Source: Marinobacter sp. (GTDB taxonomy: Bacteria > Pseudomonadota > Gammaproteobacteria > Pseudomonadales > Oleiphilaceae). Taken from it: 64,000 nucleotides of DNA. Shown here in pieces: positions 6,595 through 61,420 of the stretch. The translations under genes were made by a program, and so were the position numbers. Position 1 is the first letter of the stretch, and each line of letters opens with the position of its first letter. Where the stretch lies: assembly GCF_033722195.1 (NCBI RefSeq), contig NZ_JAWVZL010000002.1:14410-78409 (forward strand). The letters are read 5' to 3'. Below the pieces are notes generated by a model, which searched no databases, was not told the origin of the DNA, and was given only the letters and a program-made list of their open reading frames with translations.

Positions 6595-6684
6595 GCGGGC
6601 CCGGGCTACGACCAATTGAGCGTTACCCGGGCCGGACCGGTTCGGGGATAATGGCGCCAAATCCAGCACAAGGGAGAACGAGAC

Positions 6685-7470
6685 ATGGGATTACTCAGCG
6701 GTAAACGCGCACTGATTGTTGGCGTTGCCAGCAAGCTCTCCATCGCCGCCGGCATCGCCGAGGCTTTCCACCAGGAGGGCGCGGAGCTGGCCTTCACCTA
6801 CCAGAACGAGAAGCTGAAAGGCCGTGTGGAAGGCTTTGCCAAGGACTGGGGCAGCGAACTCACCTTCCCCTGTGACGTGGCCAGCGACGAAGAAATTGAA
6901 AATGTCTTTACCGAACTAAGCAAGCACTGGGACGGCATCGACATCATCGTGCACGCCGTGGGTTTTGCCCCCGGTCACGAACTCAACGGCAACTACGTGG
7001 ACGTCACCACCCGTGAGGGCTTCAAGATTGCCCACGACATCAGTTCCTACAGTTTCGTGGCGCTGGCCAAGGCCGCCAAGCCCATGCTGCGGGAAAACGG
7101 TGCGCTGCTGACCCTGAGCTACCTGGGTGCCGAGAAGGTGCTGCCCAACTACAACGTCATGGGCCTGGCCAAGGCCTCCCTGGAGGCGAATGTGCGCTAC
7201 ATGGCGGTCAGCCTGGGTGGCATGGGCGTGCGGGTCAACGGCATTTCGGCGGGTCCGATCCGCACCCTGGCGGCCTCCGGTATCAAGAGCTTCCGCAAGA
7301 TGCTGGCGGGGAACGAGAAACGCGCACCGCTGGGCCGCAACATCACCATCGAGGACGTGGGCAAGAGTGCCACCTTCCTGTGTTCGGATATGGCCAGCGG
7401 CGTGACCGGCGAGATTCTCTACGTGGACGGCGGCTTCAACATCACCGCCATGGCGGCCCTGGAAGAGTAG
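6685..7470 (+). CDS. fabI: Enoyl-ACP reductase (NADH)
   Basis: [12 protein letters not shown] catalytic motif, [12 protein letters not shown]; SD GGAG upstream. Confidence 0.97.
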
Positions 7471-49483: not shown

Positions 49484-50326
49484 TTAGTGACCGTAGATCT
49501 TCATGTTGGTCTGGGTGATGGCCAGGTTGTCCATGGAGATCACACCGATGGAAGTGCCACCGATCTCGGTTGCGCCGATGCTGATGTCAGCAATGAACTC
49601 GGGCACGCCGATTTCCAGGGCTTCGCCGGAAGCGGAGCCAGCTACACCAGTAGCTTTGCCGATGGTCAACTGGGCGTAGGCGAAACCAGCTGCGATGTAT
49701 GGGCTACCACCCACACCGCCAGCATCCGCGTACGTTGCGCCGAAGGTGTTAGCGCCGGTAACGGTCAGGTCACGGATGCCAATACCCAGGAAGTCCACGT
49801 CCATGTCCATGTCAGTGATATTGAAGGCAAGATCAGTGATCATGGTGTCGGTTGCGGTATCGACGCGCAGCTTGATGTCAGCCAGCAGACCGGTGATGCC
49901 GATGTTGGAAGCCAGCAGGGTGCTTTCGCTGCCGTCAGCAGCTACCAGAGAAGCGGTCTCAACGCCTACTGCAAAATCTACCGGGCCACCGGATACGCTG
50001 TTAACGTCGATCACTGCGTCGCCGTCAGCTTCCACGTCGATGTCGATCTTCAGGTCGTCCAGCAGGCCACTAACGCCGCTCACGTTGCCGTCAGCGTCAG
50101 TCTCAATGGCGCCGCCACCGATATGGATACCAGACACTACGAAGTTACCTTCGTCAGTGTACGTGAAGCTCCCGATATCAACTTTGGTTTCCAGCTCGAT
50201 GGTAACACCGGCCTGACCGGTGACGTTACCCATGGAGGTGTCGTCGAGGGCTTTCAGGTCCGCCTGGGCGGCGAAGGGTACGGCAGCAACCGCAGTTGCC
50301 AGAGCAAGTTTCTTCAGGCCTTTCAT
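49484..50326 (-). CDS. DUF6160-family (FilA-like) secreted beta-rich protein
   Basis: AAGGAG SD; MKGLKKLALATAVAA...AQADLKALDDTSMGNVTGQAGVTIEL...YTDEG; C-terminal IGVISMDNL...IYGH. Confidence 0.82.
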   Translation of the reverse strand: MKGLKKLALATAVAAVPFAAQADLKALDDTSMGNVTGQAGVTIELETKVDIGSFTYTDEGNFVVSGIHIGGGAIETDADGNVSGVSGLLDDLKIDIDVEADGDAVIDVNSVSGGPVDFAVGVETASLVAADGSESTLLASNIGITGLLADIKLRVDTATDTMITDLAFNITDMDMDVDFLGIGIRDLTVTGANTFGATYADAGGVGGSPYIAAGFAYAQLTIGKATGVAGSASGEALEIGVPEFIADISIGATEIGGTSIGVISMDNLAITQTNMKIYGH

Positions 50327-50435
50327 ATTGTTCTCCTTAACGGAATTTGTTGTTTTCCAAGTGCGGCGTGTTTTGTTTTGTATCCGCACGGTTAAAGAGT
50401 AGGCGCTTGTGTAACCGGGTTCCGTGATTACCTTC

Positions 50436-55548: not shown

Positions 55549-58260
55549 ATGCTCCTGACCACCAAGTTTCTCCGCCCAGCGCCCGACCCCCGCTCCATCG
55601 AACGGGACCGGCTGTTGCGTATTCTGGCACCGCGGCCGGCCAAGCGGCTGAATCTGGTGGTGGCCCCGGCGGGCTTCGGTAAGACCACGCTGGTGAACCA
55701 GTGGTGTGAACAGGAGGCACAGCGCAGTGACGGCCGCAGCTGCGCCTGGCTCGCCCTGGACGAGCACGACGACGAGCCGCGCCGGTTCTGGCAGTACCTG
55801 GCAGGCGCCTTTGCCCACGCCGGACTCGGTGGCCTGGAGGAGTGCCGGAACCTGCTCAACAACGTGTCGGTTCAGGAACTGGAAGGCGCCACCACCGCCC
55901 TGATCAACGCCCTGGTGGCCGAAGGCCGGCCCCGGGCCCTGGTGCTGGACGACTACCACCTGATCCGGGACCCCCGGATTCACCGTCAGCTCAGCTTTTT
56001 CATCGATTACCTGCCCCCCAACCTGGTGGTGTTCATTGCCTCCCGGGTGGAGCCCGAGCTGCCGGTCGCCCGCTGGCGGGTGCGGCAATGGCTGGACGAG
56101 ATTCACCCCCAGCTGCTGGCCTTCTCCGAAAAGGAGTGCCAGCGCTTTTTCGAGGAAACCATGGCGCTGCCCCTCTCGCCCGAGGAGGCCCACCGTATCT
56201 GGCAGACCACCGAGGGCTGGGTGGCGGCCATGCAGCTGGCGGCGCTGTCCGGACAGAAGGACGGCGAGGCAGTGGCGCGCAATCAGCCGCCCATCGCCGT
56301 CAGCAATCGCCAGATCAACGATTACGTGTTGAGCGAAATACTGGACAAACAGACCCCGGAGATTCGCGAGTTCCTGCTGGATACCGCCGGCGTTACCCGG
56401 CTCTGCGCCTCCCTGGCCAATGCCATGCGGGAGCGGGACGACTCCCAGGCCCTGCTGGAGAACCTGACCCGCCATAACCTGTTTCTGATTCCGCTGGACA
56501 CCCGCCAGGACTGGTTCCGCTACCACGACCTGTTCCGGGACGCCCTCCTCCAGCGCGCCCGGCAGTCCGACCCGCAGCGGCTGGAAGACCTGCAGAACCG
56601 CGCCATCGACTGGCTGCTGGCCCATGACCACATCCAGGAGGCCATTGCCCAGATCGTCCAGCACCAGGACTGGCCGCGGCTGTCCCGGGTGCTGGAGCTG
56701 CACGGCAACAACCTCATTCACGGCGGCTTCCACCTGCCGGTGCTGGACTGGCTGGAGACCCTGCCGGTGGGTGAGATCGAAGACAATCCCCGGCTCCAGA
56801 TGCTGCGGGTGTGGGCACTGTTCTTTGCCAACCGGGTCAGCCAGATCGAGGCCCAGCTCAGCCACCTGGAGGATGTGCTGGATCAGCGCGTCGCCGACTC
56901 CCATCCGGACGCCGACGGGGCTTTGGGTCTGCAGAGCGAAATCGCCCTGATGCGCTCCTACCTGGCGCGCTCACGCAGCGATTACGACAGCGCCCAGAAC
57001 CTAACCAACCAGGTACTGCGGGACATCGACCACACCCGCATCCCGTTGAAATCGGTGACCTACTACGGCCTGGGCCTGGACGACTATGGCCGGGGCGAGC
57101 TGGGCGCCGCCGAGAGTGCCCTGCAGTCCGCCGTCAGCCACGGCCAGCGGGAACACAAGCCGTCCACGGTACTGTCCAGCGGCGGCCTGCTGGCCTGGAT
57201 CCAGTTCAACCGGGGCGACATCGAGCTGGCCCTGCGCACCTGCACCGAGGTCCGGGACTGGATCGACCAGCATTACAACGACCCCACCCAGCCACGCCTG
57301 ATCTCATGCTGGCAGAACGCCACCCTGGTGGAGATCCACCGGGAGCGTAACCAGCCGGAGCTGGCGGAATCCTACCTGACCCCGCTGCTGAGCCACGTCG
57401 AGAAAGGCACCGAGCCGGGCCAGCACGTGATCATCCAGTACGTCCGGGCCCACCTCGCCTTCAGCCAGGGTGACCATCAGCTCGCCTTGGCCGCCCTGGA
57501 GGACGCCGAAGCGGTCGCCCGTCAACGCCGCGAGGACATCGTCTTCGAGCCCCCCAGTTGCGCTGCCCTGCGGGCCCGCTGCTACCTGGCCATGGGTGAG
57601 CTGGAGCGCGCCCGGCAGTGGCTGGCCACCGAACAGGCCGGCGAATTCCGAAATCCCCTCAACCGGGAACAGACCAGCATCAGCGCGGCCCGGGTCCATC
57701 TGGCCTCGGGCGAGCCGGAGGCCGCCATCCGACTGCTTGAACCCATGCGCATCAGCACGGAACGGGACCAGCACTACCGTCATCTGATTGAAGTTCAGGT
57801 GCTCTACGCCGAGGCTCTGGACCGGCGTGGCGCGACCCGGGAAGCCACCAGCCAGATGGTCACCGCTCTCAAGCGTGCCGCCAGGGCCGGGTTCCTGAGG
57901 ATGTTTGCGGAGGAAAGCCCGCGGGTGCAGGCCCTGATCCTCGCGCTCGCCAATCCGGACCTGCCCCAGCAGTGGTTTGGCCGGCTGCGGACCATGCTGG
58001 CGGCAAGCAAGCCGGTCACGCCGGAAAGGGCCACCACGGTGGCGCCACATCCGGGGTCGGCGCTGGTCGAGCCCCTGAGTCAGCGTGAACAGGAGGTGCT
58101 GGCGCTGATCAACGAAGGCCTGTCCAACAAGGACATTGCCCGGCGCATGGACGTCGCCGCCACCACCGTGAAGGCCCACATCCGCAACCTCTATGGCAAA
58201 CTGGACGTCAGCCGCCGCACCGAGGCCCTGGCGCGGGCCCGGCAGCTGAAATTGCTCTAG
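55549..58260 (+). CDS. MalT-family (STAND ATPase + LuxR HTH) transcriptional activator
   Basis: MLLTTKFLRP, APAGFGKTT, LDDYH, WFRYHDLF, C-terminal LSQREQEVL...NKDIA...VKAHIRNLYGKL. Confidence 0.92.
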   Translation: MLLTTKFLRPAPDPRSIERDRLLRILAPRPAKRLNLVVAPAGFGKTTLVNQWCEQEAQRSDGRSCAWLALDEHDDEPRRFWQYLAGAFAHAGLGGLEECRNLLNNVSVQELEGATTALINALVAEGRPRALVLDDYHLIRDPRIHRQLSFFIDYLPPNLVVFIASRVEPELPVARWRVRQWLDEIHPQLLAFSEKECQRFFEETMALPLSPEEAHRIWQTTEGWVAAMQLAALSGQKDGEAVARNQPPIAVSNRQINDYVLSEILDKQTPEIREFLLDTAGVTRLCASLANAMRERDDSQALLENLTRHNLFLIPLDTRQDWFRYHDLFRDALLQRARQSDPQRLEDLQNRAIDWLLAHDHIQEAIAQIVQHQDWPRLSRVLELHGNNLIHGGFHLPVLDWLETLPVGEIEDNPRLQMLRVWALFFANRVSQIEAQLSHLEDVLDQRVADSHPDADGALGLQSEIALMRSYLARSRSDYDSAQNLTNQVLRDIDHTRIPLKSVTYYGLGLDDYGRGELGAAESALQSAVSHGQREHKPSTVLSSGGLLAWIQFNRGDIELALRTCTEVRDWIDQHYNDPTQPRLISCWQNATLVEIHRERNQPELAESYLTPLLSHVEKGTEPGQHVIIQYVRAHLAFSQGDHQLALAALEDAEAVARQRREDIVFEPPSCAALRARCYLAMGELERARQWLATEQAGEFRNPLNREQTSISAARVHLASGEPEAAIRLLEPMRISTERDQHYRHLIEVQVLYAEALDRRGATREATSQMVTALKRAARAGFLRMFAEESPRVQALILALANPDLPQQWFGRLRTMLAASKPVTPERATTVAPHPGSALVEPLSQREQEVLALINEGLSNKDIARRMDVAATTVKAHIRNLYGKLDVSRRTEALARARQLKLL

Positions 58261-58367
58261 AAACCTGCATATTTTTGAGAGCCGGGTCACATTTTCTGTG
58301 ACTTTTTTGACGTCACTACGCCCTTTGGACGATCCGGATACGCCCCCTACTCCCCTAAGATGGTTTC

Positions 58368-58504
58368 AACGATGAGGCAACCGCCTTGTCAGGAATTTGA
58401 AACTTCAGGCCTTCAGATTCCATGTTGCGTTCTCAGCGCCAGGGTTCCTCCAAGTCGAGACCCTGTTTGAAAGGTGCCACTGCTCAGGTTGGCGCCTTTT
58501 TTTT
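58368..58504 (+). ncRNA. Candidate small regulatory RNA downstream of the MalT-family gene
   Basis: TAAGAT -10 candidate at 58356-61; internal hairpins; plus-strand terminator with T8; no SD-led ORF. Inference only. Confidence 0.5.
58470..58504 (+). terminator. Intrinsic terminator, plus-strand polarity
   Basis: AAAGGTGCCA...TGGCGCCTTT followed by T8 (58497-58504). Confidence 0.85.
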
Positions 58505-58541
58505 CGCCCGCAGAAAACCGGGAGGTCAGGCGGCGAGTGCT

Positions 58542-60704
58542 TCAGCGCTCGATGATGCGCCGGAAGGGTGGCAGGGAATCCAGCAGCAACTGACCGTAGC
58601 GGCGGCTGACGATACGGCGGTCCAGTATGGTGACCCGGCCGGTATCCTGCTCGGTGCGCAGCAATCGACCTACCGCCTGCACCAGCTTAATGGAGGCGTC
58701 CGGAACCGCGATCTCCATGAAGGGGTTGCCGCCGCGGCTGGTCACCCACTCCGCCAGGCTGGCGTCGATTGGGTCGTCAGGCACCGAGAACGGCAGCCGG
58801 GTGATCACCACGTGGTCCAGGTAACGACCCGGCAGGTCGATACCCTCGGCAAAACTGGCCACACCGAACAGCACACTGGGCCGGCCGGCGTCGATCCGCT
58901 CGCAGTGCTGGCGAAGTACTTCGCCCTTGGCCATGTCGTCCTGGGTCAGGATCAGGTCCGGGTAGTCCGGCGCCAGCCGGTCCCGAACCGCATTCATCTG
59001 GCGGCGGGCGGTGAACAGCACCAGGGTCGCCTTGTCACTGGCCCAGAGATCCGGCAGGCGTTTCACCAGGGCCTCGGTAAAGGCCTCGCTGTCGGTGGGC
59101 AGGGCTGCCATGCCCGGCACCTCGATGGTGGCCATATCGGCGTAGCGGAAGGAACTGGGCACCACCAGGAAACGGCTGGCGTCCGGCAGTCCGGCGCGGG
59201 ACTGCAGGCGGTCAAAGCGGCCCAGGGCGGTCAGGGTGGCACTCGTGAGGATGGCGCCGTAAACCCGCGACCAGAGCCGGGTGTAAAGCAGATTGTCCGC
59301 CAGCACCGGGCTACTGAACAGGGTGATGTCCTCGGCGTGGTCCCAGCGCTGCCGCACCGCCCAGCGGGCCGGCGGCGGCCCCCACTGTTTGCGGCCCTCG
59401 CCCTCCTCCGGCAGCCGCTTCTCGGACCAGGCGACCCACAGCCGCAGCTGGTCCTCGGCTCGGGCATGGAAACTGCCCATGACCGGGAACCAGGCCTCGG
59501 CGGTGGGCCGGTCCACGTCGTTCTCCCGTTTGTCGTCAAAGGCCTTCTGCAACTCGTCCACCAGCACACCCAGCTGGCGTACCAGGGCCGCGGTAGCCAG
59601 CTGTGCGGCCCCGGCCAGCTCCGCCAGTGCCTCCGGAAGCTCGCCCTCGGGATAGCGCCACTGGGCGGAACGGCGCTCATCGCTGAACTCCCAGTCGGTG
59701 TTCTGCTCGGCCTCGTCATAGACCTGGTCCAGCACCCCGTCCAGCTCCCGGGCGCAGGCACTGATCTTGTCCACGGTCTTGGCGGCGATGGTGCCTGGCG
59801 TGAGGAACGGCGGAATCTTGCTCAGCGCCTGGGACAGCTGCTTGAGCCACTGCCGGGTGCTGTTCAGTGGCACCGAGGCGGCGAAGTGATTGAGGGCCTT
59901 GTCCGGCAGGTGATGGGCCTCGTCGAAGATGAACAGGGCGTTCTCCGGCTCCGGCAGGATGGCGCCGCCACCGAGGGCCAGGTCCGCCAACACCAGATCG
60001 TGGTTGGCCACGATCACGTCGGCATCTTCCAGGCCCTTGCGGGCATCAAAGAAGGCGCAGCTGTCGAAGTAGGCACAGTGTCGGTTGGTGCACTGGCGGT
60101 GGTCGGTGGTGACCTGGCGCCAGATGTCGTCGGGTATCTGGCTGGGCCAGTGGTCCCGGTCGCCATCCCATTCCTGGCTGCCGTAGCGGCCCAGCATGTC
60201 CTCGAAGAATTCCCGGGTGCCGGGCTCTTCGTCCCGGGGCTCGTCCAGGATGAACAGCGGCATGCTCTCGCTGTCACCGGCGCCCTCGTCCTGCAACCGG
60301 CCCTCCAGCCGGGACAGGCAGAGGTAACGGCCGCGACCCTTGGCCAGGGTCCAGCTGAAATCCAGATTGCTGTGCTTTCTCAGATCCGGCAGGTCCTTGT
60401 GCACGATCTGGTCCTGCAGTGCCACGGTGGCGGTGGAAATCACCAGCTTCTTGCCCAGGGCCCTGGCCACGGGAATGGCGGCAATCAGATAGGCCAGGGT
60501 CTTGCCGGTCCCGGTGCCCGCCTCCACCACGCAGGCGGCCGGGGGTGAGGTTCGCTCGCCGTCATTGGCGGTGATATCGCCCATGTATCGGGCGATCTCG
60601 GCAATCATCAGACGCTGGCCATAGCGGGCACGTACGCCCTTGCCCGCCAGTACGTCCCGGTAGGCCTGCTGAATGGCCTGCTTGACGTCCTCGGTCAGGG
60701 CCAT
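58542..60704 (-). CDS. dinG: ATP-dependent Fe-S helicase DinG
   Basis: EAGTGTGKTLAY, Fe-S cysteines (CLSR; CTNRHC...C), DEAHHL, SFAEGIDLPG, QAVGRLLR. Confidence 0.94.
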   Translation of the reverse strand: MALTEDVKQAIQQAYRDVLAGKGVRARYGQRLMIAEIARYMGDITANDGERTSPPAACVVEAGTGTGKTLAYLIAAIPVARALGKKLVISTATVALQDQIVHKDLPDLRKHSNLDFSWTLAKGRGRYLCLSRLEGRLQDEGAGDSESMPLFILDEPRDEEPGTREFFEDMLGRYGSQEWDGDRDHWPSQIPDDIWRQVTTDHRQCTNRHCAYFDSCAFFDARKGLEDADVIVANHDLVLADLALGGGAILPEPENALFIFDEAHHLPDKALNHFAASVPLNSTRQWLKQLSQALSKIPPFLTPGTIAAKTVDKISACARELDGVLDQVYDEAEQNTDWEFSDERRSAQWRYPEGELPEALAELAGAAQLATAALVRQLGVLVDELQKAFDDKRENDVDRPTAEAWFPVMGSFHARAEDQLRLWVAWSEKRLPEEGEGRKQWGPPPARWAVRQRWDHAEDITLFSSPVLADNLLYTRLWSRVYGAILTSATLTALGRFDRLQSRAGLPDASRFLVVPSSFRYADMATIEVPGMAALPTDSEAFTEALVKRLPDLWASDKATLVLFTARRQMNAVRDRLAPDYPDLILTQDDMAKGEVLRQHCERIDAGRPSVLFGVASFAEGIDLPGRYLDHVVITRLPFSVPDDPIDASLAEWVTSRGGNPFMEIAVPDASIKLVQAVGRLLRTEQDTGRVTILDRRIVSRRYGQLLLDSLPPFRRIIER

Positions 60705-61420
60705 CAGCGGGGGCTTATCCAGTTGCGCACCACGCCCACCCGGAACCGCTGGCCGTCCAGGCTCAACACCACACCGTCCACCGTGATCTGCTCCACCAGG
60801 ATGCCGGCAAAGCGCTCACCCGGACGCAGGTAATTGTCGTTGATCATCACCCGGCGCGCGGACGGATCCGAAGCGTAAACGTGGCTGCTGAAGATCAGCG
60901 TCGGTATGCGGCGCTGGAAGCTCATCGGCATTTCCACCAGGTGCGGCACCCGGCCCTCGCCAAAACCCGCCTCGGGTTCGGTGACAGGCGTGGCAGTACC
61001 GGCGGATTTCCAGGACGGCACAATGACGGTGGGCTTCTCGGGCGCGACCTCCGGAGCGGGCACCTCGGCTTCACCGCTGGCCGCTACTGCGGATTCCGTG
61101 GGTTCGGGTTCGCTCGTGACAGGCGTAGCCGGCGCGACCGGAGCCGCAGCGGGTGCCACAGGCACCGGCTCGACCGCCGGCGTAACGGCAGCCGCGGTGC
61201 TGGCCGAAGAAGCCGGCTGGGAGGTCTCGGGCCAGCCCTGCCAGAACACCAGGGCCACGACCACGGCATTGAGAATCAGCCCCAGCCCCACCCATCCCAT
61301 GACGGGAATGCCACGGGAGCGGGGTTTGTGAATCAGCTGCACCTGCTGGCCCAGGTCCGGGACCCGGCCCTGGTTGCGCTCGCTCTCGGACTTTCTCAGG
61401 GCATCGAGAATGTAGGACAT
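60704..61420 (-). CDS. exeB: General secretion pathway protein B (ExeB/GspB)
   Basis: MSYILDALRKSESER, single TM, Pro/Ala linker, IFSSHVYASDPSARRVMIND. Confidence 0.88.
   Translation of the reverse strand: MSYILDALRKSESERNQGRVPDLGQQVQLIHKPRSRGIPVMGWVGLGLILNAVVVALVFWQGWPETSQPASSASTAAAVTPAVEPVPVAPAAAPVAPATPVTSEPEPTESAVAASGEAEVPAPEVAPEKPTVIVPSWKSAGTATPVTEPEAGFGEGRVPHLVEMPMSFQRRIPTLIFSSHVYASDPSARRVMINDNYLRPGERFAGILVEQITVDGVVLSLDGQRFRVGVVRNWISPR

Follow-up and report, generated by a model that had tools for sequence, protein, structure and literature searches.

The SgrR-SgrS, OxyR-OxyS and GcvA-GcvB pairs of enterobacteria each consist of a transcription factor gene and an adjoining sRNA gene that is presumably activated by the factor. 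The Marinobacter locus analysed here resembles SgrR-SgrS-type pairs in its adjacent regulator, in a short conserved seed directed at target start regions and in a Rho-independent terminator. Unlike in these pairs, the regulator is a 903-aa MalT-family STAND ATPase and not a protein of the solute-binding-domain, LysR or OxyR type, and the regulator and sRNA genes lie in tandem instead of divergently. Moreover, the sRNA has no sequence similarity to those of the enterobacterial pairs or to other known sRNAs, and its predicted targets encode FilA-like secreted proteins.

Promoters controlled by MalT and CRP combine direct-repeat boxes with a CRP site, the MalT box being GGGGA(T/G)GAGG. As at the E. 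coli promoters malPp and malEp/malKp, we found a full-length MalT-like regulator, direct-repeat boxes over the −35 position and an upstream CRP-type palindrome. The locus differs from the E. coli MalT regulon in that its boxes, TACGCCC and GGACGAT, are not the MalT box, that the gene presumed to be regulated is a non-coding RNA and that no maltose genes lie nearby.

With respect to its targets, the predicted RNA recalls the 'five-codon window' repression of the RybB/OmrA type, with an accessible seed of 10-11 nt matching positions +5 to +16 and a site shared by paralogous targets. Here, however, the seed lies in a hairpin loop and not at the 5′ end, and there is a second, fast-evolving anti-SD site; together, both would clamp the mRNA from the SD to codon 5. 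Spot 42 (spf) also has a CRP-type site at its promoter, and its U-rich motif, UUUCAGACCUUUU, has a counterpart in UUUCAGGCCUUU of the Marinobacter sRNA. We rejected identity with Spot 42, as there was no match to the Rfam Spot_42 family even at E up to 10 and as architecture, neighbours and taxa differ; the resemblance is taken to be coincidental.

The predicted sRNA gene and its promoter

The window, by which we mean the whole stretch of 64,000 nucleotides that was analysed, contains a 281-bp spacer between the gene of the MalT-family regulator (55549-58260, +) and a convergent gene encoding a DinG-like helicase (58542-60704, −). An 18-nt stretch within this spacer had been proposed, in a sequence-only reading, as the seed of an sRNA pairing with fabI. 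The features of the locus and of the two mRNAs under discussion are as follows.

55549-58260, +, gene of a MalT-family (STAND/LAL) regulator of 903 aa, with the Pfam domains AAA_16, TPR_MalT and GerE
58276-58291, +, CRP/Vfr-like palindrome TGAGA-N6-TCACA, a conserved column block in the genus alignment, of presumed function
58316-58345, +, activator-type promoter box with CTACGCCCTTTGGACGATCC (58316-58335) and a second TACGCCC 22 bp after the first; overlaps the −35 position
58356-58361, +, −10 hexamer TAAGAT (family consensus TAnnnT), predicted start at ~58368
~58368-58504, +, putative sRNA gene of ~137-142 nt (~140 nt), both ends predicted
58371-58390, +, stem-loop 1 (GAUGAGGC/GCCUUGUC) of the MFE fold
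58392-58421, +, hairpin 2, with arms 58392-58401 and 58412-58421 and a stem backed by covariation
58402-58411, +, loop of hairpin 2, ACUUCAGGCC, invariant, the conserved seed
58417-58434, +, the 18-nt stretch ATTCCATGTTGCGTTCTC, which runs from the 3′ arm of hairpin 2 across a 5-nt linker (AUGUU) into the 5′ half of a small hairpin
58427-58439, +, the small hairpin, its 5′ half within 58417-58434
58440-58465, +, stem-loop 3 (CAGGGU/ACCCUG) of the MFE fold, present in most relatives
58470-58504, +, intrinsic terminator with the stem GGUGCCA/UGGCGCC (58473-58496), a 10-nt loop and a run of 8 U
49484-50326, −, gene of a DUF6160/FilA-like secreted protein of 280 aa (Pfam PF19657, 1.5e-34)
50311-50342, −, predicted target site GGAGAACAAUAUGAAAGGCCUGAAG in the DUF6160 mRNA, from the SD through codon 5
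6674-6691, +, fabI SD-to-start stretch GAGAACGAGACATGGGAT, which pairs with 58417-58434

Of 37 congeners, 31 share the intergenic region; a first sample of 24 other families yielded no instance of it. When public genomes were scanned for the invariant 17-mer TACGCCCTTTGGACGAT, the same element turned up in Marinobacter, Halospina, Salicola, Halovibrio, Tamilnaduibacter and Vreelandella utahensis, and further in a Halomonadaceae isolate, Hahella and MAGs of Oleiphilus/Oleiphilaceae; chance matches in unrelated phyla lacked the rest of the element. Across ~90 loci from Marinobacter and the other genera, the promoter box, the −10 hexamer, the helices and the terminator could be aligned, and the terminator hairpin with its T-run was kept in all relatives aligned.

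The promoter box is invariant in 81 aligned loci from several genera, as are positions T43, A44 and T48 of the −10 hexamer. In these 81 loci the box and the −10 fall between the stop codon of the regulator and the RNA, which argues for independent transcription of the sRNA. A pattern scan detected no good −35 hexamer or sigma-70 consensus promoter at the sRNA promoter. In fact, the scan reported neither sigma-70 promoters nor terminators at this locus; it missed the terminator because the loop comprises 10 nt and the scanner accepts at most 8 nt. Centred ~84 bp upstream of the predicted start lies the near-perfect CRP/Vfr-like palindrome, which reads TGTGA-N6-TCACA in most relatives and was found in other genera too. 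Its position beside a MalT-like activator, as at the E. coli mal promoters, suggests a catabolite input. In the source genome the promoter box occurs only once: no other site was found with up to 3 mismatches of its 16-nt core or up to 4 of the 20-mer, so that this genome-wide search gave no further copies as a sign of a regulon.

Evidence for a conserved RNA structure came from the alignment. The fold has a z-score of −2.7, and 86.5% of the cells in the helices are paired, compared to 33-56% when the partners are slid. Changes on both sides of a pair were counted in 39 cells versus 13 in shuffles, and none of 500 shuffles reached the observed value; in helix 1, four of the seven pairs show such changes among 81 sequences. 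Within the loop of hairpin 2, AGGCCTT is invariant in all 81 aligned loci. In the structural ensemble the loop stays unpaired; only 1.4 kcal/mol is needed to open 58402-58412. The part downstream of it, with 58417-58434, is a variable, CU-rich anti-SD/anti-AUG tail.

Taken together, the promoter box, the −10 hexamer, the covarying helices, the terminator and the conservation bear out the earlier suggestion of an sRNA gene at 58417-58434, and we are highly confident that ~58368-58504 is a genuine one. A small ORF starting at ATG 58422 was rejected, as the frame is merely the antisense shadow of the helicase gene and the ATG reads CTT in relatives. Rfam gave no match in the window at gathering scores, and a permissive search of 58200-58600 returned only chance-level matches with E above 6. 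The literature that we searched held nothing relevant on a Marinobacter sRNA, on DUF6160 or on MalT plus sRNA. Absent from both Rfam and this literature, the RNA appears to be a new trans-acting base-pairing sRNA.

The regulator gene directly upstream does encode a MalT-type protein, as had been surmised from the sequence (AAA_16; TPR_MalT, 4.2e-41; GerE, 4.4e-18). The NCBIfam MalT model matches it over its full length with 468 bits, below the cut-off of 537, and by this equivalog cut-off it is a member of the MalT family and not a MalT orthologue. Based on adjacency and co-occurrence, we presume that it activates the sRNA promoter.

DUF6160/FilA-like mRNAs as predicted targets

The DUF6160 protein encoded at 49484-50326 shows a weak full-length match to the NCBIfam model pilus_FilA ('putative pilus system protein FilA') and has a signal peptide-like N-terminus; a sequence search of the PDB with this protein gave no match. 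A type II secretion gene of the T2SSB (GspB-like) family is located at 60704-61420 (−), just past the helicase gene and near this FilA-like islet.

Codons 2-5 (AUGAAAGGCCUGAAG) of the DUF6160 mRNA are the predicted pairing partner of the invariant loop ACUUCAGGCCU (58402-58412); the site lies at +5 to +16 as AAGGCCUGAAG in a gene starting with M-K-G-L-K. For this 11-bp pairing we calculated a hybrid energy of −18.5 kcal/mol and a net energy of −13.8 kcal/mol. Targets were ranked genome-wide with an IntaRNA-like scan, in which RNAduplex was applied to sliding windows and the opening energies of both RNAs were included; the 3059 genes were called with a simple codon-bias caller and are not a curated annotation, so that all ranks are approximate. 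Two DUF6160 paralogues, 49484-50326 (−) and one on contig C98, ranked 4 and 15 of 3059, both matched by the invariant loop. Judged by hybrid energy only, both genes rank modestly in the GC-rich source genome (21-30 of 3059); the case rests on conservation and not on energy. A heterologous consensus sRNA ranked the two DUF6160 genes 43 and 16 of 3059.

When the sRNA of each genome was paired with its own DUF6160 mRNA, the register +5 to +16 gave net energies of −11 to −16 kcal/mol in 22 of 23 genomes and −7.8 kcal/mol in the remaining one (G016). In addition, the tail pairs with the DUF6160 SD and AUG, with a 2-nt bulge. In the source species, the tail CAUGUUG-CG-UUCUC fits GGAGAA-CAAUAUG of DUF6160, whereas in M. 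salexigens the tail variant GUAAAGCG pairs with AGCUUUA; as an example from a paralogue, the tail UCUCUUGUUCC pairs with GGAACAAGA. Two-site duplexes over the SD, the AUG and codons 2-5 reached −28.2 to −28.9 kcal/mol in the source species and −24 to −31 kcal/mol in 22 of the 23 genomes.

The target site does not vary even at synonymous positions, and this extends to other genera. The DNA sequence ATGAAAGGCCTGAA(G/A) was present in 22 loci that had been selected by the encoded protein, and in 27 in all. Codons 2-4 (AAA GGC CTG) are invariant in all 27 loci, while the later Leu and Ala codons vary. The same start, AUGAAAGGCCUGAA, opens DUF6160 genes in Halospina, Salicola, Vreelandella, Hahella and Oleiphilaceae, AT-rich genomes included. 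In Oleiphilus, CTG is changed to TTG in the target and the pair is kept as a G-U wobble. The MKSLK paralogue class of other species, which has an AGC codon, carries a one-base mismatch in the site.

These data suggest that the DUF6160 mRNAs are probably conserved targets of the sRNA. In the sequence-only reading, the DUF6160 start region was said to match only in part; it turned out to be the conserved predicted partner through another part of the RNA, the loop.

Other DUF6160-domain proteins are encoded in the source genome, which has at least seven matches to the domain, including C98:1650-2468, C35:16078-16320 and C111:5380-5595, and among them proteins of ~850 aa. The complete site for the sRNA is confined to the MKGLK class of ~280 aa. 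Just upstream of the DUF6160 SD (window positions 50327-50366, −; leaders L181-L210) we observed the (AAN)n runs AAAACAACAAA and GAUAACAAUAAG. They look like Hfq distal-face or Crc/Hfq sites, which suggests a further layer of translational control.

The fabI duplex and other readings of the element

The duplex with fabI was read correctly from the letters: 58417-58434 pairs antiparallel with 6674-6691 through 15 Watson-Crick pairs, two G-U pairs and one mismatch (G/A), and position 6685 is the start of the ATG of the FabI enoyl-ACP reductase (Pfam adh_short_C2, 2.6e-89; NCBIfam FabI models). The anti-SD/anti-start-codon character ascribed to the stretch was likewise confirmed, as it pairs with the SD and AUG of both fabI and DUF6160. 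We asked how probable it is that the sRNA of the source species truly represses fabI over the SD and AUG, as a recent, lineage-specific target that would couple the MalT-like signal to fatty-acid synthesis.

Several observations speak for such a target. The duplex is near-perfect over 19-20 nt and covers both the SD and the AUG, and RNAduplex gave −22.8 kcal/mol for the two 18-mers and −26.5 to −26.8 kcal/mol for the extended segments (sRNA 58415-58435 versus fabI −10 to +9). In the source species, the hybrid energies of fabI and DUF6160 are −27.8 and −28.9 kcal/mol, and the cofold ddG of fabI (−16.8) is comparable to that of the conserved target (−15.5). In the scan with accessibility, fabI ranked 18 of 3059 with a net energy of −11.6 kcal/mol. 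Furthermore, fabI holds the only site on both strands of the 3.54-Mb genome with up to 3 mismatches of the perfect complement of the 18-mer, where ~2.4 such sites are expected for a random 18-mer.

Other calculations on the same duplex point the other way. The free RNA holds 13 of the 18 nt in base pairs, which belong to hairpin 2 (3′ arm) and to the small hairpin, and opening 58415-58435 costs ~10.5 kcal/mol. On hybrid energy alone, fabI fell to rank 303 of 3059, or to 50 of 3059 in a second scan (39-nt seed segment versus −22 to +20). We also counted ungapped matches of any part of the sRNA to the region −35 to +20 of 3026 start regions, requiring at least 17 of 18 pairs and at least 15 Watson-Crick pairs, a threshold set after the fact at the observed level. 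Two genes qualified genome-wide, one of them fabI, which favours it as a target. Among 400 dinucleotide shuffles of the sRNA, the mean was 0.56 qualifying genes per genome; the probability of at least one in the genome was 0.42, which speaks against fabI, and that of at least one among the 52 genes of the window was 0.0075, which speaks for it. The fabI match is unusual within the window and unremarkable genome-wide. More generally, any anti-SD/anti-AUG sequence will find a good partner among a few thousand start regions.

What decides against fabI is the comparison with relatives, for which fabI start regions were taken from 29 congeners. In 19 congeners, the species' own sRNA and own fabI gave net energies of 0 to −8 kcal/mol in differing registers. 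Five further species with the most similar seeds or the closest FabI (M. salicampi, M. mangrovi, M. halodurans and strains BGYM27 and QJJ-212) gave −2.9 to −6.4 kcal/mol. The pairing was thus found in none of the 24 other Marinobacter species, the closest relatives included, and no compensatory changes were seen among the relatives compared. The consensus sRNA of the family, scored against the source genome, ranked fabI 1269 of 3059. In the genus, the tail has the consensus UUUCUUGUUCCGCGUUGUUUCGACG, while the source species reads UUCCAUGUUGCGU----UCUCAGCG; the anti-AUG 'CAU' and the anti-SD 'UUCUC' are both peculiar to the source species. The fabI seed lies where the RNA varies most, and two Marinobacter species have deleted it (loci L006 of G019 and L029 of G021). 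Their shortened sRNAs of 92-93 nt have neither the small hairpin nor stem-loop 3, and that of G021 has also lost the CU-rich tail; hairpin 2 and the terminator are retained. This indicates that the part with 58417-58434 is dispensable.

With a pairing confined to the source species, a partly buried seed and ranks that vary from 18 to 303 of 3059 with the scan, the proposal of fabI as a meaningful target is not supported. Lack of conservation is one of the outcomes that the sequence-only reading itself had named as refuting its proposal. The lipid- or alkane-sensing role that had been attributed to the regulator fared no better, as nothing found in the analysis links it to lipids or alkanes. 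We consider fabI an unlikely target even in the source species. Most likely, the duplex is a by-product of an anti-start-region sequence and not a conserved link to fatty-acid synthesis; the fabI start region (GGAGAACGAGACAUGG; GGAGAAC...AUG) resembles that of DUF6160, which explains the cross-match. Upstream of the GATAAT −10 of fabI (window positions 6612-6630), we observed a conserved element, AATTGAGCGTTAC, in nearly all Marinobacter (loci L031-L060). A fatty-acid regulator of the FabR, DesT or FadR type might bind there.

The element may also not be a base-pairing sRNA at all, its complementarities being incidental: it could be a protein-binding RNA, such as a sponge of the CsrA/RsmA type, or the 3′ UTR and terminator of the MalT-like gene. 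In line with this, the loop contains CAGG, and the element follows the regulator gene directly on the same strand. A mere 3′ UTR is at odds with the invariant box and −10 that separate the regulator stop codon from the RNA. CsrA binds ANGGA sites, several of which are exposed in hairpin loops in sRNAs of the RsmY/RsmZ type. The loop found here has AGGCC and not ANGGA, and there is just one such loop. A CsrA/RsmA-sequestering sRNA was rejected on these grounds, the fold having the single conserved loop and no repeated GGA loops. Incidental complementarity is hard to reconcile with an 11-nt match between two elements that are independently invariant across families, for which the chance expectation is ~1e-4, nor with the wobble by which loop and target co-vary in Oleiphilus. 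We therefore give this reading little credence.

Finally, activation of DUF6160 translation by remodelling of a structured leader, or an action mainly on mRNA stability, seems very improbable, as in all genomes the predicted duplex takes in SD, AUG and the first five codons, the classical footprint of repression, and no anti-antisense arrangement was seen.

Co-inheritance and proposed model

The distribution of the three genes agrees with DUF6160 being the partner of the sRNA. Six congeners lack the sRNA, and the same six are the only ones with no DUF6160 homologue. In a sample of 401 genomes of the order, a covariance model built on the region from the box to the hairpin detected the sRNA in 11 genomes, representing 10 of 12 Marinobacter and one sister genus. 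DUF6160 was present in 52 genomes of this sample, including all 11 with the sRNA, and absent from the two Marinobacter without it. At the level of genera, DUF6160 was recorded in 24 of the 157 in the order, and a genome often has 5-12 copies. Most of the 24 genera gave no match to the sRNA model; they may have a divergent sRNA or none.

An orthologue of the regulator adjoins the sRNA in the genomes that have it, with one exception, and is absent from eight congeners that lack the sRNA. The identity of these orthologues is 58-72% within the genus, 55% in Halospina, 44% in Oleiphilus and 34% in Hahella. In the exceptional genome, G064 (87%-complete assembly; C19:14420-14540, L247), the sRNA is present, and regulator and DUF6160 were undetected. 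This is probably due to assembly fragmentation; otherwise the genome would contradict the co-occurrence. The sRNA always has one DUF6160 copy at a distance of ~8 kb. As regulator, sRNA and this copy fall within ~8 kb, the co-occurrence could in part reflect linkage in a single island. Distant DUF6160 paralogues vanish too where the sRNA is absent.

We propose the following model, to which we assign a probability of roughly two in three. The MalT-like protein would bind the TACGCCC repeats and activate the sRNA promoter, possibly with an input from CRP/Vfr. The invariant loop would pair with codons 2-5 of the DUF6160 mRNA, and the CU-rich single strand that follows it, 58417-58434 included, would pair with the SD and AUG. 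This two-site pairing would occlude the ribosome-binding site and repress translation of the DUF6160/FilA-like proteins, and the tail, which varies between species, would track the local DUF6160 leader. Hfq probably takes part, as suggested by the (AAN)n runs in the leaders and by the U-tail of the terminator. In this model the fabI duplex is a by-product.

A bolder version, which we regard as a long shot, takes the sRNA to be the entire output of a MalT-family STAND regulator whose only strong genomic site is the sRNA promoter. The sRNA would clamp FilA-like paralogues in several gammaproteobacterial genera, and in the source lineage a second seed would have captured the essential fabI, tying the control of envelope fibres to fatty-acid synthesis.

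At the strength of the main model, the locus offers a testable module of three parts: a sensor of the MalT family, a dedicated sRNA whose 10-nt loop seed is invariant, and uncharacterised DUF6160/FilA-like secreted proteins. These parts are co-inherited in Marinobacter and in related genera that are halophilic or oil-associated. The module would provide a first functional handle on DUF6160. Moreover, it would illustrate how, in an sRNA with two pairing sites, one seed can be frozen while the other drifts with the leader of its target.
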